Shown here piece after piece: positions 1,163 through 13,600 of a stretch of DNA of 64,000 nt. Within the stretch, counting starts at the first letter, position 1; each line of letters begins with the position of its first letter. The stretch lies in the sequence record OZ413487.1; one strand, given 5' to 3'. Below the pieces are notes generated by a model. That model made no database searches. It was not told where the DNA came from and saw nothing but the letters and a program-made list of their open reading frames with translations. This DNA comes from a phage. Position numbers and translations under genes: made by a program.

Positions 1163-1191
1163 TTGACTATTGTTACAAAATTTGGTAAAAT
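1163..1191 (+). promoter_or_regulatory. sigma70-type promoter (TTGACT-N17-TAAAAT)
   Basis: -35 TTGACT at 1163-1168, 17-nt spacer, -10 TAAAAT at 1186-1191, upstream of the baseplate gene. Confidence 0.55.
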
Positions 1192-1224
1192 ACCTTGTAG
1201 AGATTTTCATACCGGAGGAGTGAC

Positions 1225-2715
1225 GTGGCTAAGTATGGATTGACAGAGGCTGGTTTCGTTATACCAACCCTAAATGACCTAATCGTTGAAACTAAGCAAA
1301 GCCTGATCCGTGCTTTTGGCGAAAACTTCAACGTACAGAGTAACTCCGTTGCAGATAAGCTGACCACTATCTTCAACGAGCGAGAGTATCAACTTATTCT
1401 TATGGCAGCATCTGTATACGCATCACAGACGCTGTATGGGGCAGAAGGTATTTACCTAGATGAGCTTCTTGGAAGACAGGGTATTTACCGAAGAGGCCGT
1501 TCTAAATCATCAGGTACCTGCCAGTTGACAATCAACACAACTGTGCCGTACAATATGATTTATGATTCCAAAACTTATACACTGGATAGTGGCAACTTTG
1601 TTCTTAGCAATGATGTGCAGGTGGCAGGGAATCTTATTGCCCACAGAATAAATGCTCCAGACCTAAGGATTGGTAAATACAACTTTCAAATCACCAACCA
1701 GACAGATGGAAGTATCAAAACAAAAAGTCTGGTTTTAACAGATAAGTCTCTGGACTCTTCTGATCTGCCAAGCTTTTACGGAGAGATTAAGCAGTTCATT
1801 GTCGATAATACAACCCTGTTGAACGACGATTTGATTCAGATCGATATGTTGACAGGAACGTTGTGGATAGGGTACAATTCGAATCTTGATCAAGTTGGAC
1901 TTAATAGTAGGGTAGATTTCAGAGTATCCCCGATTGTAGGGGAAAGAACTATCACACTGGATGTTATCGCTAACGAGGCTGGTGAGCTGTCAAGAGAAGC
2001 AGAAACCGTGACAACAATGTCACCTACTCCTAGTGGATTTATCAAGCTTACCAACCGAGAAAGATTCAATGAGGGCAGGGATGTTGAGAAAGACTCAGAG
2101 TATCGCTTAAGAGCTTCCAGCACAAAACAGTTAACATCTAAGGCTACCCGTCCTGCAATCCTTAGCGCTGTAAGCGAGGTGAAAGGTGTTGAGAAAGTGA
2201 GAGTGTTCTCCAACAACACCGATAAAACTGATGCTAAAGGTATACCTCCTTACAAGTTCCAAGTGGTTGTGTTTGGTGGTGCAACGGAAGACATTTGCCA
2301 AGCACTTTACCAAACTATAGCCTGTACGAACAGGACTTATGGTAATATTTTCTACGATGTCACTACATCTGATGGTCAAACTGAAAGAATTTATTACTCC
2401 AAGGCAAATACCTACCGCCTAGATGTAAGAATTACCTACTCCGGTGCCGCACTTTCCACAACCGAAAAAGATGCCATTGTAGAGGCTCTTTTGCAGGTTG
2501 TTAACGGACTGGATGTTGCAGATACGTTGTATAATATCCAATTGGTCGGCGCTGCATCTGCTGCTGTATCAATAGGCAGATTTAATAGACTGGTAATTCA
2601 AGTTAAACCAGTAGGAGCTTCTGATGAAGCTTACACTACAAACGATATTGTTGCGAACATGACCGAGGTGTTTGACCTCGACGAAAGTAATATAACTTTC
2701 CAACAAACTATTTAA
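1225..2715 (+). CDS. baseplate J-like protein (baseplate wedge subunit)
   Basis: N-terminal region (GFVIPTLNDLIVETKQSLIRAFGENFN ... YGAEGIYLDELLGRQGIYRRGRSKSSG) matches the pattern of baseplate J family proteins. Lies in the tail module with a Shine-Dalgarno site (GGAGGAG). Confidence 0.65.
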   Translation: MAKYGLTEAGFVIPTLNDLIVETKQSLIRAFGENFNVQSNSVADKLTTIFNEREYQLILMAASVYASQTLYGAEGIYLDELLGRQGIYRRGRSKSSGTCQLTINTTVPYNMIYDSKTYTLDSGNFVLSNDVQVAGNLIAHRINAPDLRIGKYNFQITNQTDGSIKTKSLVLTDKSLDSSDLPSFYGEIKQFIVDNTTLLNDDLIQIDMLTGTLWIGYNSNLDQVGLNSRVDFRVSPIVGERTITLDVIANEAGELSREAETVTTMSPTPSGFIKLTNRERFNEGRDVEKDSEYRLRASSTKQLTSKATRPAILSAVSEVKGVEKVRVFSNNTDKTDAKGIPPYKFQVVVFGGATEDICQALYQTIACTNRTYGNIFYDVTTSDGQTERIYYSKANTYRLDVRITYSGAALSTTEKDAIVEALLQVVNGLDVADTLYNIQLVGAASAAVSIGRFNRLVIQVKPVGASDEAYTTNDIVANMTEVFDLDESNITFQQTI

Positions 2716-2726
2716 GGCGGCGAGAT

Positions 2727-3413
2727 ATGGCAGAGATTAAGTCGGATGTTAACCACATCCACACTCTGCCAGATTTTGTTCAGGGAGGTCTTGACTACCT
2801 GCCTGGAGATTTTCTGGCTGAGAAGGTTAATTTGGTCACATTCTTAACCGTGTACCTTAAAAGGTTGGAGGATGTTGATAAGATGCTGGTAGGTTTGGCT
2901 GAAGGAAGATTGCTTAACAATGCCAGCGGAAGATACCTTGACGAAGTTGGTAATCAACTTGGTATTCTTAGGAATGGACTTTCAGATGCTGATTTTCGTG
3001 CCACACTAATTATTCAGCAGGCCGCAGCATCAAGGGGCGGGACTCGCGAAGATGTCATCTCCACCTTGCGACAATTGTTCGGAAGAAACAATTTCGATAC
3101 GTGGAAAGGAGACAACTTCAGGTTTGACATAAATATTAGAAAAACTTGCTTTGACATATTGCAGTCTATCGATCAGATCTTAGATATGCTACCATTGCCT
3201 TGTCATTTGCGTCTTACAGAATCGCAAGGGCAAGCTTTTGGTTTTGAAGGGGACCATACAGCTCTTGGCTTCGGATCAGTGTGGGAAGAAAACCAATTCG
3301 GAGTTGGTGGGCTGGCTACTTTGCTGTATGTTCCTGACGTAAGACCTGATTGGGACACCACAACCATTTATTGTGAAAGTATTACAGTAAACGCAACTAG
3401 ACAGGAGGGTTAA
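2727..3413 (+). CDS. putative baseplate / tail protein
   Basis: 228-aa ORF coupled to the baseplate J-like gene; position analogous to gpI-like baseplate proteins. No motif verified. Confidence 0.45.
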   Translation: MAEIKSDVNHIHTLPDFVQGGLDYLPGDFLAEKVNLVTFLTVYLKRLEDVDKMLVGLAEGRLLNNASGRYLDEVGNQLGILRNGLSDADFRATLIIQQAAASRGGTREDVISTLRQLFGRNNFDTWKGDNFRFDINIRKTCFDILQSIDQILDMLPLPCHLRLTESQGQAFGFEGDHTALGFGSVWEENQFGVGGLATLLYVPDVRPDWDTTTIYCESITVNATRQEG

Positions 3414-5485
3414 TGGCAACAGCTATTTTTAAACCTTACCGTGATTACTCTACAATGGCTGCACGGTTTCATTACCGCACAGTTCAGGATACTGCAGTTC
3501 CTGGTAGGGATTATAATCATGTTGAGGGTGATGTAACTATCCCAATTGGGGCAACCAGTATTGAGATCCCAGTGGAAATTGTTGACAAATTACCCAACAG
3601 GTTGCCAAGAAGCTTCTTTATGGAGTTTTCATCAAAATCTCAAGGGGTGATGATTGGAACACAAAGGGCGAAATGTACAATAGTTTCAGATGAGAATCTT
3701 GACAGGATATCTTGGGATACTGTCGAGGAGAGAATGTTTCACCCAAGATATTGGGTTACATCTACCCAGCAGACTGAAAGCACCTGTATTGTTGCAGATA
3801 ATAACTGTTGTATTAACCGTTTAGTGTCAAGAACATATGGAGGTATGGCTGGGTGCATTTGGGAAACAGTTGACAAGTATGACCATTTCGGTATTGGGTT
3901 TGATGATCATTATGAGATGAGAAATACCAAGCTTTGGTTCAGAATGTCAATAACCAACGCCAGCAACTTCTCCACTCCTGAAAAGATGATTATGACTGTA
4001 GACCTTGTTGATGGCACAATCATCTATGTTCCTTTAGCTCAATATGCTGTCAGCATCTCAGAGGATAAGAATGTTGCAGAAATTCATATTGATTTCGAGG
4101 ACTGCGTCGGGATGGACCAGAACAACAATATGATGGGTGTTGATCCTCGACAGGTGAGAAGGATTTTAATACCGCTTATGCCTAAAGATTGGGTAAGCAA
4201 TAGCACAAACCCAAGAACGGAAAATGTAGAGTGTGAGTTGCGCCTAGATCTGCTTCAGCCAGACACAGGCTGGAAAATGATGCAACTTAACAATATTCAG
4301 GTGAAAGAACACGACGTTGGGATCTGCACAGCATATGACGATATGTGGAACGTGTCTCCTTTAAGGGTGTTGAACAATATCAAGCGTCTGGGCTATACCG
4401 GAACCATAAACCATTATGTTGGTATGAGTCATTATTATGACTACACATGGTCAGGAACTCAATGGTCTATAAACAGAACAGGAGCGCTAAACGCTGCAGC
4501 TTATAAATGGCATGATGATTTTATGTACAATGCCAAACGACATAACTTCGACGTTATGCAATCTGTAAGTTTTGAGCTTTTCAGCGATGCCTGCCCGTTG
4601 GAATGGACCCAAAGAGACTGGAACGATAACTACGCTAAAACAGGGTATACACCTTGTAGCTACCTCCTGTCTCCAACCATTGAAGAGGGTATGAATTTCC
4701 TTACTGCAGTATTTAAGAATTTTGCATCAGCCGCTATGAGAAACAACCTGCCAGTGATTATGCAGGTTGGTGAACCGTGGTGGTGGTACAATACCGATAC
4801 TCGTAGACCTTGTATTTATGATTACCCTACAAAGCAGGCGTTTTATGATGAGACAGGTGAGTATGCATTAGATATTGGGACTATTGACGATCCTAAAACT
4901 GGCGGTGTTTACGACAAGTATGTAGCATTTTGTCGTGGTAAGCTTGGCGCTCGTATTGCGGCTATTTCAAAGGCAATAAAGGCACACGCTGCATCAGCTC
5001 AGATGACAGCTCTACTGTTTTTCCCAACCATTATGGAAACCGAGCTTACGCAAAAGCTTAACCTTGCTGACCAATATAAAAAGGAAGCAGGTGCTCTTGA
5101 TTTCTTCTGCACCGAGTGCTACGATTGGGTGATGCAGGGAGGTATTGAAAAGGCAAAAGAGTCTGTAAACATACCTATCGTTAAGTTAGGTTGGCAACCG
5201 TCTGAAATACAATACCTTGCAGGGTTCGTTCCTAGTAAAGAGCTTGCTCCGGTATATGGTTACGACCCAACCAGGAATTACCAAGAATTTTTATGGAGAT
5301 GTATTTGCGGAAACATGGCAACTATAGAGTATAGATATCCTGAGGTAAAACAGTATGTGTGGGCATACCCGCAAGTAATGTCTGACAGCATCACTGTTAC
5401 CGCTAGAGATTCTACCGTGCTTCATATGGGGCAGGTTGCTCTGAAAGGGTATGTAGAAGATGTTGTCCCGCCAGACTTCTCATAA
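3413..5485 (+). CDS. putative tail or baseplate structural protein (690 aa)
   Basis: Long ORF with start overlapping the upstream stop (ATGA), inside the fiber/baseplate operon. No recognisable catalytic motif. Confidence 0.6.
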   Translation: MATAIFKPYRDYSTMAARFHYRTVQDTAVPGRDYNHVEGDVTIPIGATSIEIPVEIVDKLPNRLPRSFFMEFSSKSQGVMIGTQRAKCTIVSDENLDRISWDTVEERMFHPRYWVTSTQQTESTCIVADNNCCINRLVSRTYGGMAGCIWETVDKYDHFGIGFDDHYEMRNTKLWFRMSITNASNFSTPEKMIMTVDLVDGTIIYVPLAQYAVSISEDKNVAEIHIDFEDCVGMDQNNNMMGVDPRQVRRILIPLMPKDWVSNSTNPRTENVECELRLDLLQPDTGWKMMQLNNIQVKEHDVGICTAYDDMWNVSPLRVLNNIKRLGYTGTINHYVGMSHYYDYTWSGTQWSINRTGALNAAAYKWHDDFMYNAKRHNFDVMQSVSFELFSDACPLEWTQRDWNDNYAKTGYTPCSYLLSPTIEEGMNFLTAVFKNFASAAMRNNLPVIMQVGEPWWWYNTDTRRPCIYDYPTKQAFYDETGEYALDIGTIDDPKTGGVYDKYVAFCRGKLGARIAAISKAIKAHAASAQMTALLFFPTIMETELTQKLNLADQYKKEAGALDFFCTECYDWVMQGGIEKAKESVNIPIVKLGWQPSEIQYLAGFVPSKELAPVYGYDPTRNYQEFLWRCICGNMATIEYRYPEVKQYVWAYPQVMSDSITVTARDSTVLHMGQVALKGYVEDVVPPDFS

Positions 5486-5497
5486 TCAGGAGATAAA

Positions 5498-6538
5498 ATG
5501 TCAAAACCTAGTTTTCCATTAGAGATTTGGGCAGAGGAGGATCAGGTTCTGCCTAACACCCACAGACAGAACAGGCTACGCCCGATTGATGATTTGTGGA
5601 GAAAAGGTTGGGATCTTGGTCAAAAGCCCTCATGTGAAGAACTTAACTATATTTTCAATATGCTCGGGACTTGGGCAAAATACATCGCTGACGAGCAGAT
5701 CCCCGCTCAAGAAGGCCGTTATCTGGTACGTGATAATAACTTGAGTGATCTTTTGAACATTCCTGTTGCCCGTAGAAACCTTGGGATTATTACTAAGGAA
5801 GAGGCAGACGCCAGGTATGTAAAAGTTACAGGTGATACAATGACAGGCCCATTGGGTTTGCAACGTATCAACTTTAAAGCTGCCGAGTCAGATAAGGCTT
5901 GGATAGAGACAACTATTGGCCCAGATAAGACAACTCTCGACTTTGGGTTAAGTGATAATACCGGGTCGTTTGATGATGGTGGTACATCTACAGTGGATGC
6001 GTTCCGTTGGAGATTCCAGCCAACTCAGCCGGATATTAATCCAGAGTTCACTTTGATGTACCTTAACGCGATCACGGCTAACCGTGCGCTGTTGAAAGTG
6101 GTAGGCAATGTTGAAGTTGTCGATAACATGAGGTGCAATAACCTTACTATCAGCAATACAGCGACATTCACCAACTGTAATGTGGCTAGTCAGTTGACGG
6201 CTGGGTCAGTGTATGTTAATGGTGGTGCAAGTTGTGACAGTATGGTTGTAAGAAGCCAGCACTGTGTTGTCGGTAACAGAAATGTGGTTCGCTCTGTGAA
6301 CGGAGTGACGGCTAACGGTAACGGTGATGTAACGATCACTATCCCGCAGACAGGTGTGCAAGACATCAGAATCGGTGCAAGACTTGTTGACGGCGTTTCC
6401 GAATCTCCAATTCGCAACGGCTACGTTGTCACAGGCTGGCATTTCGGTGACAAAAAAGAGATGCGTGGTTCAACCTACTGGGCAGGACCTTTACAAAAAC
6501 TTGTAAACGGTCAATGGATCACTGTTAATTATGCATAG
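5498..6538 (+). CDS. tail fiber protein, paralogue A
   Basis: Contains the fiber-type motif KVTGDTMTGPLGLQRI. Homologous over its full length to 7553..8596, with conserved N-terminus (P.FPLEIWA) and C-terminus (QKLVNGQWITVNYA). Confidence 0.75.
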   Translation: MSKPSFPLEIWAEEDQVLPNTHRQNRLRPIDDLWRKGWDLGQKPSCEELNYIFNMLGTWAKYIADEQIPAQEGRYLVRDNNLSDLLNIPVARRNLGIITKEEADARYVKVTGDTMTGPLGLQRINFKAAESDKAWIETTIGPDKTTLDFGLSDNTGSFDDGGTSTVDAFRWRFQPTQPDINPEFTLMYLNAITANRALLKVVGNVEVVDNMRCNNLTISNTATFTNCNVASQLTAGSVYVNGGASCDSMVVRSQHCVVGNRNVVRSVNGVTANGNGDVTITIPQTGVQDIRIGARLVDGVSESPIRNGYVVTGWHFGDKKEMRGSTYWAGPLQKLVNGQWITVNYA

Positions 6539-6552
6539 ATCGGAGGACTAGC

Positions 6553-7137
6553 ATGAAAATACTTCAAGAGTTTAAACTTTACCAACCGGGATCTGGCGAA
6601 TACCACTCCAACAAGGAAACCAAGGAGCTGACCCCTCAAGAGGTTGAGGATTACACCGCATACACTGGGTATTTTTTACGTAATGATGATGGCGATTGGT
6701 ATGTGCAGTCACGAACATTACGACAAGAAAATCCGGGTTGTATCTTCCTACTTGTTGACGAGAAGGGAATTCTTAAGACATCTACAGAAGAACCTGATGC
6801 CTTATGGCCTGCTCCAGGTCTTCGTGTGGTTATCGCCAAAAAAGAAGAGGTACCAGAAAACATTATGCTTCACCACGACGCTTTGCGTTTAGTTGGTGAT
6901 GAATTTGTCACAGATAATGAATTCTTTGTTCAACAGGCAGAGGGTGTCATAGAGACAGAACTTGCTTGGGCTACTGCTAGAATTGGTGCCTATCAAGACA
7001 TGATTGACCTTGAATATGATCTTACTGATGACCAGAAACGTAACATCAGAGATTTGAAAATGTACAGGGTAAAACTTCTTGAAATAGATACATCTAAAGC
7101 CCCTGACATTTTCTTCCCGGAGCGACCTACCCTCTAA
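6553..7137 (+). CDS. hypothetical protein (possible fiber assembly or accessory protein)
   Basis: 194-aa ORF with RBS GGAGGA, located between the two fiber paralogues. Confidence 0.5.
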   Translation: MKILQEFKLYQPGSGEYHSNKETKELTPQEVEDYTAYTGYFLRNDDGDWYVQSRTLRQENPGCIFLLVDEKGILKTSTEEPDALWPAPGLRVVIAKKEEVPENIMLHHDALRLVGDEFVTDNEFFVQQAEGVIETELAWATARIGAYQDMIDLEYDLTDDQKRNIRDLKMYRVKLLEIDTSKAPDIFFPERPTL

Positions 7138-7148
7138 GAGGAGGTGTT

Positions 7149-7463
7149 GTGGAGTTGGATTTGGCGGCATTGTACGGTATCTGCATGGGTACCGTTGTCC
7201 CGATCTGTGTATGGGCTTTCAACCAGTGGCACACCAAATGGAAAGGCATTTCCAAGAGGTTGGATGAACTGGAGAAAGACCTCATCTTAGTGAAAAACAG
7301 TATGGTTACAAAAGATAAACTTGATTCCGTTATCGAGACCCGGTTAAGCAAGCTAGAGGCCGATATTAACGACCTTAAGCAGGATGTCAGGACAGATGTC
7401 TCCGGCATCCGAGCTGATGTACAAAAGATTTTGCACATGCTCGTAGAGCATAGTAAAAGGTAA
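7149..7463 (+). CDS. membrane-anchored coiled-coil protein
   Basis: GTG start after GAGGAGG. N-terminal hydrophobic segment (LAALYGICMGTVVPICVWAF) followed by a heptad-like coiled coil. Terminator downstream. Confidence 0.5.
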   Translation: MELDLAALYGICMGTVVPICVWAFNQWHTKWKGISKRLDELEKDLILVKNSMVTKDKLDSVIETRLSKLEADINDLKQDVRTDVSGIRADVQKILHMLVEHSKR

Positions 7464-7471
7464 ACAAAGGT

Positions 7472-7508
7472 CAGAACGGAAAGGACTCCGTTCTTGCATT
7501 TTGTTCTC
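7472..7508 (+). terminator. rho-independent terminator
   Basis: GAACGGA / TCCGTTC stem followed by a U-rich tract (TTGCATTTTGTTCTC). Confidence 0.6.
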
Positions 7509-7552
7509 TAAAGTGTTAAAATAGTCCTAAGGAATTTTCTCAGGAGAACGTG

Positions 7553-8596
7553 ATGACTAAACCAGTTATCCCTCTTGATATTTGGGCCAATCAGGATGTT
7601 GTGCTTGAAAATACGGGAGAGTTGAATAAATCTCAACCAAAAAAAGAAGAGAGATTGAAAGGTTGGGATATGACACAAAGAGTGGCATGTGAAGTTGTTA
7701 ACTTTGAACTCCACATGCTTTCTGCGTGGTTAAAGCATTTAACAGAAGATGTTGTCCCAGGATGGGATAATAGATTCTTAAGGGTCACTAATAATCTAGC
7801 AGACGTTCCAGACAAAGCTGCTGCACGTCAAGTTCTCAATGTATACTCGCCTGAAGAAATGGACGATCTGTATGTTGACAAGTCTGGAGACATAATGACT
7901 CAGACTCAAACTTTAGGCCTTCAAAGAATCGAGTTTGCATCTGCGTCAACAGACAATGCGGCAATATATACCACCATAACTCCAGACAAGACGACGATGG
8001 ATTTCTGGATTATGGACAACATCGGTGGTGCTGACGGCACAGACCTTGATGATCCTTCTCACCAAATAGACGGGTTCCGTTGGAGATTTCAACCTTCTGG
8101 TGGGCAGCCTGTGTTTTCGGCTATGAAGCTCAATGCTATAACTGCCAACCGTGCAAGACTGGCCATCCAAGGAAATCTTGAATGCAACGATGCAAAAAGT
8201 TCCTCTGCAAATGCCAATGCGGTCACGATACCAAGAGCCACTGTTAACGGACAACAATCCTGCGGAATCGCTCAAATAGGTGGAAGAGTTGATTGTAACG
8301 ATGAAACAGTCAGGGGTCAATATGCAACAGTTGGTGGAAGAAACGTGGTCCGCAGGGTAAATGGTAACGGCGCAGACAGTAGTGGTAACCTTACTATCCC
8401 TATGCCCAGCAGAGGGGTTGATGATGTAAGGATAGCAAACCGTTTCAAAACCACCTACAGAGAGTCAAGAGTCTACCCTGGACATGTGATGTGCTCTGGT
8501 AACTACGCTTATAAACACCCTTATCAAGGTGATTACTGGACAGGTGCTATCCAAAAACTTGTAAATGGTCAATGGATCACTATATCTTATGCTTAA
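7553..8596 (+). CDS. tail fiber protein, paralogue B
   Basis: ATG at 7553 preferred over the track GTG at 7550 because of AGGAGA spacing. Motif KSGDIMTQTQTLGLQRI and the shared termini with 5498..6538. Confidence 0.75.
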   Translation: MTKPVIPLDIWANQDVVLENTGELNKSQPKKEERLKGWDMTQRVACEVVNFELHMLSAWLKHLTEDVVPGWDNRFLRVTNNLADVPDKAAARQVLNVYSPEEMDDLYVDKSGDIMTQTQTLGLQRIEFASASTDNAAIYTTITPDKTTMDFWIMDNIGGADGTDLDDPSHQIDGFRWRFQPSGGQPVFSAMKLNAITANRARLAIQGNLECNDAKSSSANANAVTIPRATVNGQQSCGIAQIGGRVDCNDETVRGQYATVGGRNVVRRVNGNGADSSGNLTIPMPSRGVDDVRIANRFKTTYRESRVYPGHVMCSGNYAYKHPYQGDYWTGAIQKLVNGQWITISYA

Positions 8597-8607
8597 AAAG
8601 AGGGTAA

Positions 8608-8874
8608 ATGAAACTAACTCAGTTTTTATGGGGACTGGTTGCGGCATCTGATGACCCTACGAAAGTGTCCCAAACTAAGCTATGGTCGAACATAGGCATG
8701 GCGGTGATGACTGGGGTGTTTATTCATATGGGGTATAATGATACGCTTCCTGAATGGTATGCGTGGATATACGCGCCTTCAGTAGCTTGCCCCCAGCTTA
8801 TTAGCAAATTCATCTCGCTCCGGTGGGGTTGCCAGCACCCTGACCACGTTAAAAACGAAGAGCAAAAAGCTTAA
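8608..8874 (+). CDS. small membrane protein
   Basis: 88 aa with a hydrophobic helix (IGMAVMTGVFIHMGY); RBS GAGGG. Confidence 0.5.
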   Translation: MKLTQFLWGLVAASDDPTKVSQTKLWSNIGMAVMTGVFIHMGYNDTLPEWYAWIYAPSVACPQLISKFISLRWGCQHPDHVKNEEQKA

Positions 8875-8883
8875 GGAGAAATC

Positions 8884-10629
8884 ATGGCGCAAGACATGAC
8901 AAGCTTTGAGCAGGCGGTAGATCAAGTAATTGTTGATTCTGAACGTTTGCACCTGATTGTCAACGGTAACGCTGTGGATGAAGTTGTCGTAGAGGATGGG
9001 ACCACCATCCCTACGGTACGAAAAGCCATGCTTGACACCCTTTATTTTAAAACGCCACCGATCCCTTGGGCGTATGGTGCATCCACAACAGTTTTTAACC
9101 AGCTGTACGAGTTTAAAGGGGACACAGGCCCTCAGTGGTGGTACGCTCCCGCAGCATCAAAATCTAACCCGGTTAGAATGCCAGCAGATCCTTCACAATC
9201 TCCAAACTGGAGATTATATACCGATTCTGCAGTAATGGCAAAATACTACGCAAAACTTAACAGTCCGAGGTTCGAAGGTGACCCGCGAGTACCTACGCCT
9301 CCAATGGACGACAAATCCGAGTCTATAGCAAACACAGAGTTTGTTGTTGACTATGTGGATAGCATATTTGAAGCCATGGAGGGAATGAAAGTTACTGTAG
9401 GGTCTTTGGTGGTAAAAGGTCTTACAGAACTTGCTAACACTATAGTTGGTGGCACACTCACCTTACATGGGCCTGTTAATGGAGCAGATTCTACTGCACG
9501 CTTCAGGAACCTAATCCTCACGGCAAATACTTCTACACTTACTTTTGCGTGGAGTGATCCTAAGCATGCAGACTGGAGAAGCACAGAGCTGCAACCTCAT
9601 GAAGTGTCCACCCACAGGGTTATAGCTGACACTATAACTTCTGGGAAACCAGTGGCTAATAATAACGATGTGCATTTTGATGGTCTAGGTAATAACTTTT
9701 TTGACTACGTGTACATTCGTGGTAATGCCATGAAGGCAGCAACCGAACCGACATTGCAGGTAGATGGAACCACCAGGGTTAAGAACCTTGAGGTGACAGG
9801 CACTGTTACAGGGATAACCTACTCTGTCGATGGCACCATGATTTACCCTAGCTATATTGAAAGCACGGGGGACGCATTAATAAATGGTGATTTAGAAGTT
9901 GGCGGATCTGTAGTTATTCGAGGTACAGCCTCTATCCAAAACATAGCTCTGAATACCCTAAGAGTCAATGAGCGTGCAACTTTTGAAGGGGAAGGGCTTA
10001 CAGCCAACAAAGGTGTAATTACCGAGCTGACAACCACTACTTTAACTGCAACAACTGCAAACTCTGAAAACTGCAACGTTACCAGAAACTTGCAGGTAAA
10101 TGGAGATGTTAGTTTAAACGCAGCAGGGACGGGCACCACCTACCTTCACAACCTTGAAATATCCGGCACAGTGACTGGGTGGCTGCCAGACTTCTCTAAT
10201 GTCAACTTTGTTTGTAATGGCATTAACTCCAGTGGCAAGATAACCACCTCTCAAGAAATTGAGGCGGGTAAAACCATTACTGCCCCTACTTTCCACGCAG
10301 GAAAGGTAGATTTTGATTTAGAGGAGGTTGACGCGTCCAGTGGGACATGGACACCTAACGGGCAGGCCAGTATGTATGTTGTCCACGCGAAAGGGGATTT
10401 TACAATAGGACAATGGCCTGGTACATCAGCGGAAGATAAACCTTATCCATTCACTGCGGTTATCTATGTCATTCAGGATGCTGTAGGTCACAACGTGACT
10501 TTGCACGATAAGTATGCTATCCTGTCGGCAACGCCTGTTATTAATAACAAGGCTAATAGTGTTACCTTGCTGCAATTAACATATTGTGGTGTTGGTGATA
10601 TCGTAGACGTAGTAATTGCACAACGTTAA
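8884..10629 (+). CDS. tail fiber / tail spike protein (581 aa)
   Basis: Long beta-rich ORF with T/G/N-rich repeats, RBS GGAGAA, in the fiber module, followed by a terminator. Confidence 0.6.
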   Translation: MAQDMTSFEQAVDQVIVDSERLHLIVNGNAVDEVVVEDGTTIPTVRKAMLDTLYFKTPPIPWAYGASTTVFNQLYEFKGDTGPQWWYAPAASKSNPVRMPADPSQSPNWRLYTDSAVMAKYYAKLNSPRFEGDPRVPTPPMDDKSESIANTEFVVDYVDSIFEAMEGMKVTVGSLVVKGLTELANTIVGGTLTLHGPVNGADSTARFRNLILTANTSTLTFAWSDPKHADWRSTELQPHEVSTHRVIADTITSGKPVANNNDVHFDGLGNNFFDYVYIRGNAMKAATEPTLQVDGTTRVKNLEVTGTVTGITYSVDGTMIYPSYIESTGDALINGDLEVGGSVVIRGTASIQNIALNTLRVNERATFEGEGLTANKGVITELTTTTLTATTANSENCNVTRNLQVNGDVSLNAAGTGTTYLHNLEISGTVTGWLPDFSNVNFVCNGINSSGKITTSQEIEAGKTITAPTFHAGKVDFDLEEVDASSGTWTPNGQASMYVVHAKGDFTIGQWPGTSAEDKPYPFTAVIYVIQDAVGHNVTLHDKYAILSATPVINNKANSVTLLQLTYCGVGDIVDVVIAQR

Positions 10630-10637
10630 TATATATC

Positions 10638-10667
10638 TAACCGCTCCTGACGGGGCGGTTTTCTTAT
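10638..10667 (+). terminator. rho-independent terminator
   Basis: CCGCTCC / GGGGCGG stem followed by TTTTCTT. Confidence 0.7.
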
Positions 10668-10679
10668 CTGGAGAACACA

Positions 10680-13600
10680 ATGCTTCCAATCCCTTTGCTA
10701 AAACTTGGTCGTCATTTCCTCGATAAGAGGGGTGGAATTAAGGAACTTGCTGTTCTGTCATACCCAATAGACAACAGTGATGGTACAAGCAACACAGTAT
10801 CCTATGTAAATAGCTTAGCTATACTTTTTGATGATGGTCAGCTTAATATTACTGGCTATAATAGGTTCGGAGAGTGTCGGACTGGAGATCTTGATACAAT
10901 AAACTATCCTAATGAGGCAGCTTGGAACGTAGACCATGTTTGGAGAGCTGACCGTGCATTTGTAATCCGCACATTCGATAATAAATTTTTCTATATTGGT
11001 TGCACAGCTGGTCTTATCGGATCGGAGGCAGCAGGTGGAAACGATGTTTGTGTCAGAGAGTGGACACCTTTGCCGGAACAGATCGTAACAGGGTTGCATT
11101 TGGACACCCATCCTGAGAGACTTGTTGAAGTAATGGGTGGCGTAAACAATACAGTGTGGGTAATTGCTGCACCAGAGGCTGATGGTATGCTTCACCTGTA
11201 CGGCTCTGGCAATAATACTTACGGCTCTCTTCATGTTGACAAAAGTCAACACGCTACTCCAGTTAAGATCGGTGAAACATCTGAAAGTCCAGAGACAGGT
11301 CCTTGGAAAAATCCAAGAATTAATTGTGAAGTTCATGACAACTCGGTTATTTTTGGTGGTCCTAACGGATTCTGGATTGCAGGTTACGATTTCTTAAGAA
11401 ATAACAGCAAAAACACACTAGTTTATCCAGCCGAGCATGTGACTCTTGACCAGTTTAAAGGCATCCCGGTGGGCGAGACATGGAAAGGGTTCATGTGTGG
11501 ACCTAATGGTGCAATTATAGCCACAGAAAGGATGCACAAACCTGATGACCAACAGCTTGTTAACGTATTCTACGGGCAAGACGTCTGGGGAGATGACACA
11601 TGGCGTTCCTTAAATATCACCTACACCCATGAGGTGATAATGGCTCGTGGATACGGCACAAGTGGCATTTTCTTCAATAATGGCACTAAACAGTATCGTG
11701 GATTCTCTCGCAACTTGTGTAATGATATTGGTGCACAATCTGCAAACAATAGCCCTAGGGCTAATTTTATCCACTATCAGGCTCTTGCTACAGCTAAATA
11801 TGTTGAGCAACGCCTGCCAGTTAGCTGGACAGAGAGTGTTTATTTCCAAGGCATCCACAGGGAAGGTTTCTTAGGAACCTTTACTGTTGTTAATGGCAAA
11901 CTTTGGTGGTCAGGCATCCCAAGGGGGAGTTTTGCAGGATCTAACAACCTCTTTGGCGGCAGACTTAACAGCCAAGGGTTCACAGAGATTCCGGAGAATT
12001 GGTATAAAAATGTCCCGGTAGATAGCTGGGGTATCGAAGACATCTTTGATGTCAATGGTGTGAGCAATGTTAGCAACATTTACATCGGAGATACTGTCAA
12101 GATGAAATTGAAACCTCAGCCGGAGGGTGCTACGTTCATTATTGACAAGATTGAGTTGGTAAATGCTGCAGGCACTGTTGTTACAGATGCAAACTATCAG
12201 TTCTCCACTAACTGGAACCATGGTGGTGCTAACGAAGTTGTGGTCACCCAGTATAACCGTAACATCAACAGACGTGGTTTGTATTCTATCAAGATCACCT
12301 ACCATGACAAGCATGGCACTGGAAGAACCTGTACGACAAGGACTTTGAACTGGAACACTATAGTTCCTGCGTATCCGTCCAACGGCAAGTGGCATACCGT
12401 TGGTAGAAACAAGCAGTTCCATGTTAACGATACTGTATACTTTGGGCTGAATGGGACCCAGCCTGCAGTAGAAGGGGATACATCGTATATGGTCAGACTC
12501 CACAGAATGGATGCTGGATCAGTCACTTATGATGTGACCCAAGAGATCTACGATCAAAGACGCGCCACGTATGACAATATTGTGAAAACACAAGCCTTGT
12601 GGAAGTTCAATCCTAATGGCAAGGGTGGTAAAATGTTGCAGGTTAATGAGCAGAACGGAACGTCGTTGACTGTTCACGAACACCCAGACCCTTGGCCTGA
12701 TCCTGGAAAACCTCACCCGGGAGCTCGTACACTGAAAATTGTCAGCCATGATGCAGGGTATTTCGGAATACGCTGGGAAGCTACAGTAAGATATGTCGAC
12801 GGGACAACAAACAACATAGGGATTACACTTGGCGGCACTAGTGAAGATAACTCGCTGAAAATTGCCTACACGCCTAGAGGTATCTCTATTGATAATATGG
12901 ATGTTGTTCGCAATGGTTACGGCGATGTGAATGTCAAAGTTACTCTTGGCGAACATCTTGGTGGGGAAAGGATCATCATGTATGCCTTTGATCATGATCC
13001 ACGCACCAATGGAACTTATGCAAATCAGGCATGGAGTTACCTGATAAATGCACCTGAGCCGAATACTAAAGAGTTCTACTATGGTATGAAGCGAGATGTG
13101 TGCAAGAAAACAGGAACACATGACTGGATTGCTATCTGCGTTAAAGATGAGCGCACAGCTTGGGATGAGCCTGTTAACAGATGGTTCATAGGTATTCCTA
13201 CCAGAAGTGATAAGTATGTCGCAGAATATATTGTATGCATGGGCGGTACCAACCTAAACATGTGTTGGAACGAAGATGTAAACAAATACTCTGATTATGA
13301 CTATATGAGGGATTACTCTTGTAATTTGTGGTTTAACCAAACTACAGGTTACCCTCCGCGTCAGGCAAGGGTAAATCCTGCAATCTTTACAGATACGCAG
13401 GTTTTCTTGACAAAACAGGCCAACGAGGTTCAGACCTTCAAGAATAACTATGACCCTAACAAGTGGTTCTACAACTGTTACGGCGCATTTTTCTGGGGAC
13501 CTGGTGAGTTACCTGGTGGAGGATCTTGCTTGAATGAGGCAACTTACGCCAGTGACTACATCATGGGGCAGGTCAAGAAGTATAAGATAATCCCCGGTCC

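Follow-up and report, generated by a model that had tools for sequence, protein, structure and literature searches.

The short tail fiber genes

The 64,000-nucleotide stretch of phage DNA described here (sequence record OZ413487.1, referred to below as the window) contains two paralogous genes for short tail fiber proteins, called copy A and copy B. The stretch is 99.5% identical to Escherichia phage AlexBoehm, an rV5-like myophage of the genus Vequintavirus, and matches 118 phage records. In the AlexBoehm record, two genes are annotated as "short tail fiber protein" with one "tail fiber chaperone" between them. The two genes in the window are:

5498..6538, + strand: copy A, short tail fiber protein of 346 amino acids (aa), rV5 gp33; member of phrog_4465, with matches to the short tail fiber of phage phiTE and to Mu S (PDB 5yvq)
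7553..8596, + strand: copy B, short tail fiber protein of 347 aa, rV5 gp30; member of phrog_4465, with a derived anchor and, in the rV5 lineage, a derived tip

Both open reading frames (ORFs) are present at these coordinates, and the ATG of copy B at 7553 agrees with the GenBank annotation. The system is identical to that of phage rV5, from which nothing material differs: the gene order gp34-gp33-gp32-gp31-gp30-gp29-gp28 is the same and the sizes of the two fibers, 346 and 347 aa, match. In Table S3 of the rV5 study, gp33 corresponds to copy A, gp32 to the chaperone, gp31 to a 104-aa protein with one transmembrane domain and gp30 to copy B.

The duplicated fiber pair and its main interpretation, dual receptor binding, are already in print. 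The 347-aa gp30 of rV5 was reported to be 42.3% identical to gp33, and the pair was proposed to serve "two chemotypes of LPS", or lipopolysaccharide (Kropinski 2013, PMC3606486). A later study treated the pair as paralogous short tail fibers; it linked them to the fiber that phi92-like phages have in single copy and, at a greater distance, to Mu S/U. Phapecoctavirus phages likewise have a single fiber (Maffei 2021). The present analysis adds the asymmetry of the N-terminal anchors, a comparison of the tips across lineages, the replacement of a gene slot by copy B and a short gene-conversion tract.

The two proteins align over their full length with 42% identity and 58% positives (BLASTP, E 7e-93), and both match the "tail fiber protein" family phrog_4465 over its residues 1-342 of 342 (E 2e-171 for A, E 2.9e-165 for B). 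The preliminary description of this DNA, made from the sequence alone, had called the genes duplicated, diverged tail-fiber genes homologous from end to end, and this is borne out. A tblastn search of the window found no copies other than these two. The motifs named in that description are shared in part. The C-terminal QKLVNGQWIT(V/I).YA is exact in both proteins; P.FPL.IWA holds for A (PSFPLEIWA) and not for B (PVIPLDIWA), and GDTMTG is present in A, with B having GDIMTQ and a two-residue insertion.

Identity between the copies varies along the chain. Numbered by copy A, it is 50% over residues 1-30, 34% over 31-65, 33% over 66-110, 52% over 111-135, 54-59% over 136-200, 18-20% over 201-240, 48% over 241-292, 26% over 293-330 and 75% over 331-346. 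A pattern of conserved termini and a variable middle is thus too simple a picture.

Both copies are maintained. Each is found at full length and at least 95% identity in about 116 GenBank vequintaviruses (tblastn), and vequintavirus records have two places that match a fiber query whereas those of other genera have one. The counterpart of copy B in phage V5 (NC_011041) is 99.1% identical. Against a divergent lineage, L004, the proportion of nonsynonymous differences (pN) amounts to 0.089 in A and 0.143 in B, with the synonymous proportion (pS) saturated at about 0.8, which indicates purifying selection on each. This saturation prevented an estimate of dS in most comparisons, and pN and pS are given in its place. 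In rV5, gp30, gp33 and gp32 were all detected in virions by mass spectrometry (Kropinski 2013, PMC3606486). The possibility, raised in the preliminary description, that one copy is a pseudogene or is missing from the virion therefore finds no support.

In one GenBank record, MN850642 (phage navn), copy B is divided between the two ends of the linear sequence, which gives three places and 68% coverage; the cause is permutation of the record rather than truncation of the gene. Between 16 and 21 unannotated GenBank records labelled "Campylobacter phage" (MG0656xx) are 98-99% identical to E. coli vequintaviruses over positions 5000-11000 of the window, and their host label is doubtful.

The pair might simply raise the dosage of short fibers, with attachment and specificity equal in the two copies. 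The vequintaviruses tested all share a dependence on one LPS core region, and allelic variation of both paralogues is low among cultured isolates (Maffei 2021). However, 58% of the positions differ between the copies, purifying selection on each is strong, their divergence is asymmetric, and the cassette has been retained across lineages whose synonymous sites are saturated. Pure redundancy is thus very improbable.

The N-terminal anchor

The genes for two baseplate wedge proteins, each present in a single copy, lie just upstream of copy A:

1225..2715, + strand: baseplate wedge 2, Baseplate_J-like (phiTE wedge 2, 9cuy_T, E 1.9e-158; phi92 gp145, E 1e-55; Pfam Baseplate_J)
2727..3413, + strand: baseplate wedge 1 (phiTE wedge 1, 9mjn_dh, E 7.8e-66; phi92 gp146, E 2e-23)

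The names of the two phi92 wedge proteins look swapped somewhere between the sources. In the chain table of PDB 21vq, gp145 (495 aa) has two chains and gp146 (209 aa) one, whereas the text of the phi92 paper gives one gp145 and two gp146 per wedge (PMC13450770).

In phiTE, residues 3-92 of the short tail fiber form a trimeric joint docked on wedge 1 (PMC11972413). Residues 1-108 of copy A match the phiTE fiber (PDB 9cuy) with E 1.4e-19; the match of copy B to the same anchor, over residues 1-83, is weaker (E 1.5e-8). Tajima relative-rate tests with 12 outgroups show that B has evolved faster in 12 of 12 cases (in one example, 57 changes unique to B against 19 unique to A, p 1e-5). The excess is concentrated in residues 1-65, where 16-21 changes are unique to B and 3-9 to A.

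The changes in B fall on positions that are otherwise fixed. Copy B breaks eleven columns that are near-invariant in the family (I30, D32, L33, W34, G41, K43, P44, Y51, N54, Y62 and G117), and the near-invariant signature RPIDDLW.KGWD.GQKP is broken in B alone. The orthodox anchors, namely those of A, of phages Av-05 and PVP-SE1 and of metagenomic relatives, are 56-78% identical to each other, whereas B is 34-48% identical to any of them. In a tree of the anchors, A is nested among the single-copy relatives and B lies outside; in the tree of the fibers, the A clade and the B clade are well supported (bootstrap 99 and 91). On sequence, copy A has the standard anchor of the family and copy B a remodelled one that is specific to its lineage. 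Constraint on the B anchor persists (dN/dS 0.07). Compared with L004, the window has 87% identity in wedge 1, 89% in the A anchor and 77% in the B anchor.

An exhaustive search of 1.84 billion representative proteins found B-type anchors in B orthologues only; all of the next-best hits that were examined have orthodox anchors. A foreign origin of the B anchor is thereby ruled out, and the anchor must have arisen in place rather than been imported.

The two copies might nevertheless dock at the same wedge 1 site, each virion carrying a random mixture of A and B trimers as a hedge between two LPS-core specificities, as in the published idea of two chemotypes. Both copies keep the core columns of the anchor (P4, P7, W11, A12, N25, P29, G37, D39, E47, N50 and W59) and are nearly equal in length (346 and 347 aa), wedge 1 has a single copy, low-resolution maps show a single short-fiber density, and the tips of A and B differ in this phage. 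Set against this, purifying selection maintains the departures of B at the eleven near-invariant columns in each of the three B lineages. Competition for one site seems unlikely, and the tips add a further objection.

The C-terminal tips

Residues 286-343 of copy A match residues 440-501 of Mu S (5yvq) with E 2e-6 (phmmer), and in a Foldseek search with the low-confidence model of A, the same structure was the sole significant match (E 4e-7, probability 1.00). Copy B has no direct match to Mu S and is linked to it through its homology to A alone.

The A tip is 56-63% identical to those of Av-05, PVP-SE1 and phi92-like fibers, the value for the phi92-like fiber being 56%. A tip with the loop GW.FG[ND]KKE[LM]RG is common to A, Av-05, PVP-SE1 and the phi92-like fiber, with 51-86% identity. 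In its place, copy B of the rV5 and L004 groups carries the derived loop CSGNYAYKHPYQGD, and its identity to the shared tip is 33-43%. When the A and B tips are compared with each other, identity is 42% in the window as well as in L004. The B tip is itself well conserved, being 94% identical between the window and L004 (dN 0.04). Dual receptor specificity, as put forward in the preliminary description, is plausible for this phage on sequence grounds, in that the B tip differs from A in a loop otherwise kept across Vequintavirus A copies, Av-05, PVP-SE1 and phi92-like fibers.

The tips behave differently in L002, a divergent metagenomic lineage that keeps the five-gene cassette and whose copy A is 73% identical to that of the window. 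Here identity between the tips of the two copies reaches 89% over residues 293-346 and 86% over residues 288-346, that between the anchors only 38%; a second B sequence of the L002 type (P0034) has the same tip. The feature that constantly distinguishes A from B is therefore the anchor and not the tip. Recent gene conversion as the source of the shared tip in L002 is ruled out, since synonymous sites there are saturated (pS 0.82) and only 2 of the 9 degenerate third positions in the 30-nt core described below match between the copies. Because both L002 copies carry nearly the same tip, binding to two receptors cannot account in general for retention of the pair; for the same reason, a mixture of specificities competing for one site does not explain retention in that lineage. 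A search of GenBank for a cultured phage of the L002 type found none.

In genetic screens, LPS outer-core GlcI was identified as the terminal receptor both for Vequintavirus, with two fibers, and for Justusliebigvirus, with one. This agrees with the sharing of a tip between A and the phi92-like fiber and with A as the GlcI binder; copy A is likely to be the irreversible LPS-core binder.

Four related proteins (P0013, P0030, P0039 and P0041) have an orthodox anchor and shaft but end in a globular domain of another kind, recognised as PF21882 in two cases, which shows that tips are replaced in a modular fashion within the family.

The shared C-terminal strand

The strand Q[KY]L[VI]NG.W at the C-terminus is conserved throughout the family, phiTE included. 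In the window, the codons for this strand form two nearly identical cores:

6494..6523, + strand: 30-nt 3' core of copy A (codons for QKLVNGQWIT), part of a gene-conversion tract
8552..8581, + strand: 30-nt 3' core of copy B, part of the gene-conversion tract

The cores are identical at 29 of 30 positions. Their synonymous states covary by lineage: genomes of the rV5 group all have CTT GTA...CAA in both copies, and those of the L004 group all have CTG GTC...CAG in both copies. It is this covariation that identifies a short gene-conversion tract. The cores also stand 2058 bp apart as direct repeats, with the chaperone gene, the 104-aa gene and most of B lying between them. In the FV3 group (phages FV3, SYGMH1 and JEP1), copy B reads QKFVNGQW, with an L-to-F change in the otherwise invariant strand.

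Conserved termini around a variable middle had been thought unusual for fibers. That view does not stand: the C-terminal strand is a family-wide feature homogenised by gene conversion, and it is at the N-terminus that B has changed most. Fibers as a rule have a conserved baseplate anchor at this end.

The chaperone and the neighbouring genes

The remaining genes of the cassette are arranged around the two fibers as follows:

3413..5485, + strand: 690-aa fiber, rV5 gp34, with Calx-beta, NCTSP_N and NCTSP TIM-barrel domains (Pfam PF23845, E 4e-80; PF23844; PF03160)
6553..7137, + strand: tail fiber assembly chaperone, rV5 gp32, of the Mu U / lambda Tfa type (Caudo_TAP PF02413, E 9e-12, above the cut-off; phrog_136, E 2e-36)
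7149..7463, + strand: 104-aa protein with an N-terminal transmembrane (TM) segment and a coiled coil, rV5 gp31 (phrog_5345, E 1e-48; one transmembrane domain in rV5 Table S3; hydropathy segment 3-21)
8608..8874, + strand: 88-aa small protein, rV5 gp29 (phrog_1322, E 1e-32; "membrane protein" according to PHROGs and the PVP-SE1 annotation)
8884..10629, + strand: 581-aa fiber, phiTE gp241-like (phrog_4549, E 1.5e-250; PF26208/PF26209 on the L004 and L002 orthologues)

Copy A lies downstream of the wedge 2 and wedge 1 genes and is followed directly by the chaperone gene. Copy B lies about 2 kb beyond A and has no chaperone of its own, and tblastn found no second chaperone in the window. Small accessory ORFs had been reported after each fiber; this is correct for A, which is followed by the chaperone and the 104-aa gene, and not for B, which is followed only by the 88-aa protein. 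Since the window holds one chaperone only, we infer that this chaperone serves both fibers through their shared end.

A and B might also co-assemble into mixed trimers: the chains are of similar length and collinear, there is one chaperone, and the C-terminal strand is shared and kept identical by gene conversion. Against this stand six small indels along the shaft, an identity of only 18% over residues 201-240, an additional insertion of 8 residues in the L002 copy B, the placement of the genes in apparently separate transcription units, and descriptions of the related fibers of phiTE, phi92 and Mu as trimers made from one gene product. Mixed fibers are accordingly a highly improbable arrangement.

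The 104-aa gene adjoins the chaperone gene in all relatives examined (Av-05, PVP-SE1, L002 and L004), and homologues of the 88-aa protein occupy the same position in Av-05 and PVP-SE1. A simple hydropathy scan found no TM segment in the 88-aa protein at its threshold, and permissive Pfam scans of the small proteins returned coiled-coil noise only. In relatives with a single short fiber, the fiber gene is followed by the chaperone gene, by those for a 104-aa protein with one TM segment and a 157-aa protein with four, by a gene of about 88 aa and then by the next fiber. Copy B occupies the slot of the four-TM gene, found at 6949-7422 in Av-05 and 6997-7470 in PVP-SE1. The single-copy relatives thus have three predicted small membrane-protein genes within the fiber operon, and judged by gene order the middle one is replaced by B in Vequintavirus.

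The 690-aa fiber has been proposed in the literature to be a binder of the ECA/NGR glycan resembling N4 gp65, and mass spectrometric evidence has been reported for rV5 gp34. Its TIM-barrel domains carry the name "non-contractile tail sheath".

Expression signals

Four candidate signals are found at the boundaries of two apparent transcription units:

1183..1192, + strand: late-promoter motif TGGTAAAATA, intergenic, 33 nt before the ORF at 1225
7473..7494, + strand: terminator-like hairpin closing the A unit (scan hit; -16 kcal/mol, z -4.25)
7494..7523, + strand: promoter-like block TTGCAT-N17-TAAAAT, including the late motif TGTTAAAATA
10639..10660, + strand: terminator-like hairpin closing the B unit (nine pairs, six of them GC, followed by a T-run; z -3.3)

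The late motif of rV5 is TggTAaAAtA (PMC3606486), and the motifs at 1183 and within the block at 7494 both fit it. Transcription of the unit with copy A probably starts at the TGGTAAAATA motif. The second motif stands in the only sizeable gap of the cassette (7464-7552), which holds the hairpin at 7473-7494 and the promoter-like block. At the place of that hairpin, a stem is kept through base changes in L004 and is weaker in L002; TTGCATTTT and TGnTAAAATA are invariant across the window, L004 and L002. In the window, TGnTAAAATA occurs five times against 0.82 expected, always on the + strand (1183, 7514, 31101, 40281 and 52857). Four of the five sites are intergenic and lie 25-45 nt ahead of a + strand ORF, some of them after a hairpin or T-run. 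With two hits in the window, the longer form TTGCAT-N14-20-TAAAAT does not count as a recurrent promoter; recurrence is confined to the shorter late motif. Judged by these motifs, A would be part of the wedge unit, and B would be the first gene of a late unit that also holds the 88-aa gene and the 581-aa fiber.

The apparent unit formed by B and the phiTE gp241-like 581-aa fiber, behind a promoter motif of its own, raises the possibility of a chiefly structural role for B, as adaptor or branch point of another fiber such as the 581-aa one, in place of receptor binding. Contacts of this kind have precedents, as the long fiber of phiTE touches the short fiber and fiber II of phi92 hangs from fiber I; the B tip, too, is without the loop shared across genera. 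Yet B retains the whole Mu S-like scaffold of the tip, including the terminal Q-K-L-V-N-G-Q-W strand, its tip is as highly conserved as described above, and the L002 copy B has a complete A-type tip. A chiefly structural role for B is for these reasons improbable.

Comparison with known systems

Phi92 gp147 (fiber III) and phiTE gp236 have a homologous N-terminal anchor and are encoded next to the wedge genes, as copy A is. Both phages differ from the window in having one such fiber instead of two. These fibers are trimers that sit on the wedge and point downward, with a proposed function in irreversible binding; in phi92, fiber III forms six such trimers (PMC13450770). The phi92-like shaft is unrelated to that of the present fibers in its middle part (13-24% identity over residues 66-110). 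The short fiber of phiTE differs in being 554 aa long, with a coiled coil and Ig-like domains, and that phage is flagellotropic.

The Mu S/U system resembles the present one in its related C-terminal tip, an adjacent Caudo_TAP chaperone, an LPS core target and two alternative fibers. In Mu, the alternative arises from an invertible segment and S'/U' is expressed alternately, whereas here both genes are complete, with their own N-termini on the + strand, both rV5 copies are reported in virions, and one chaperone is available for two fibers. A switch like the invertible G segment of Mu is ruled out, as both genes are complete, are on the same strand and have no flanking inverted repeats.

T4 gp12 has the same proposed role, being a baseplate-attached trimer that binds the LPS core irreversibly. 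Its chaperone is gp57A, unlike the Tfa-type gene at this locus. The sole support for a likeness to gp12 is a published HHpred similarity (Kropinski 2013, PMC3606486); phmmer searches of the PDB with A and B at E values up to 1 did not recover gp12, nor did the Foldseek search of the PDB.

Attachment of the two fibers

We modestly favor a reading in which A is an orthodox LPS-core binder docked on wedge 1, and B is a lineage-specific copy with a different mode of attachment and, in the rV5 lineage, a different tip. Each fiber would consist of an N-terminal baseplate-docking module, a shaft and a Mu S-like C-terminal tip, and the tips would presumably be folded with the help of the single Tfa/Mu-U-type chaperone encoded after A. 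A keeps the type of anchor that binds wedge 1 in phiTE. B would have arisen by duplication within the Vequintavirus lineage, landing in the slot of the four-TM membrane protein gene and acquiring a hairpin and late-promoter motif of its own, while its anchor changed to a different, still constrained sequence. B would then have an attachment point different from that of A, on another fiber or at a second baseplate site, so that each virion would have short fibers in two non-equivalent sets. The B tip has diverged as well in the rV5 group and may bind a different ligand there, the L002 copy B keeping the A-type tip.

Several points weigh against this reading. The faster evolution of the B anchor could reflect weaker constraint at the same site and not a new site. 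In cryo-EM maps of two vequintaviruses at 7-9 Å resolution, one short-fiber model was fitted without separating the paralogues, and just three fibers were found near the baseplate (PMC12143355); no structure places A or B on a Vequintavirus baseplate. The AlphaFold2 monomer models are poor, with a pLDDT of 60.5 for A and 57.8 for B. The sister grouping of A and B has a bootstrap of 62% for the full-length proteins and 73% for the middle region, the support for promoters and terminators is at the level of motifs, and the same-tip lineage L002 is known from metagenome contigs only.

A more specific proposal, which we regard as tentative and somewhat short of an even chance, is that the pair is kept for position and not for a choice of receptors. 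B would provide a second docking mode, giving for instance 12 short fibers instead of 6, or a set that branches from another fiber. Divergence of the tips would have come later, and the 30-nt tract would keep both tips compatible with the chaperone.

These results are a modest refinement of a known system and do not define a new kind of system. The rV5-like phages are among the most often isolated E. coli phages and are candidates for therapy, which gives the terminal-receptor step practical relevance. The comparisons direct attention to the N-terminal anchor of gp30, beyond the tips alone, and lineage L002, with the same tip on both copies, constitutes a natural control.

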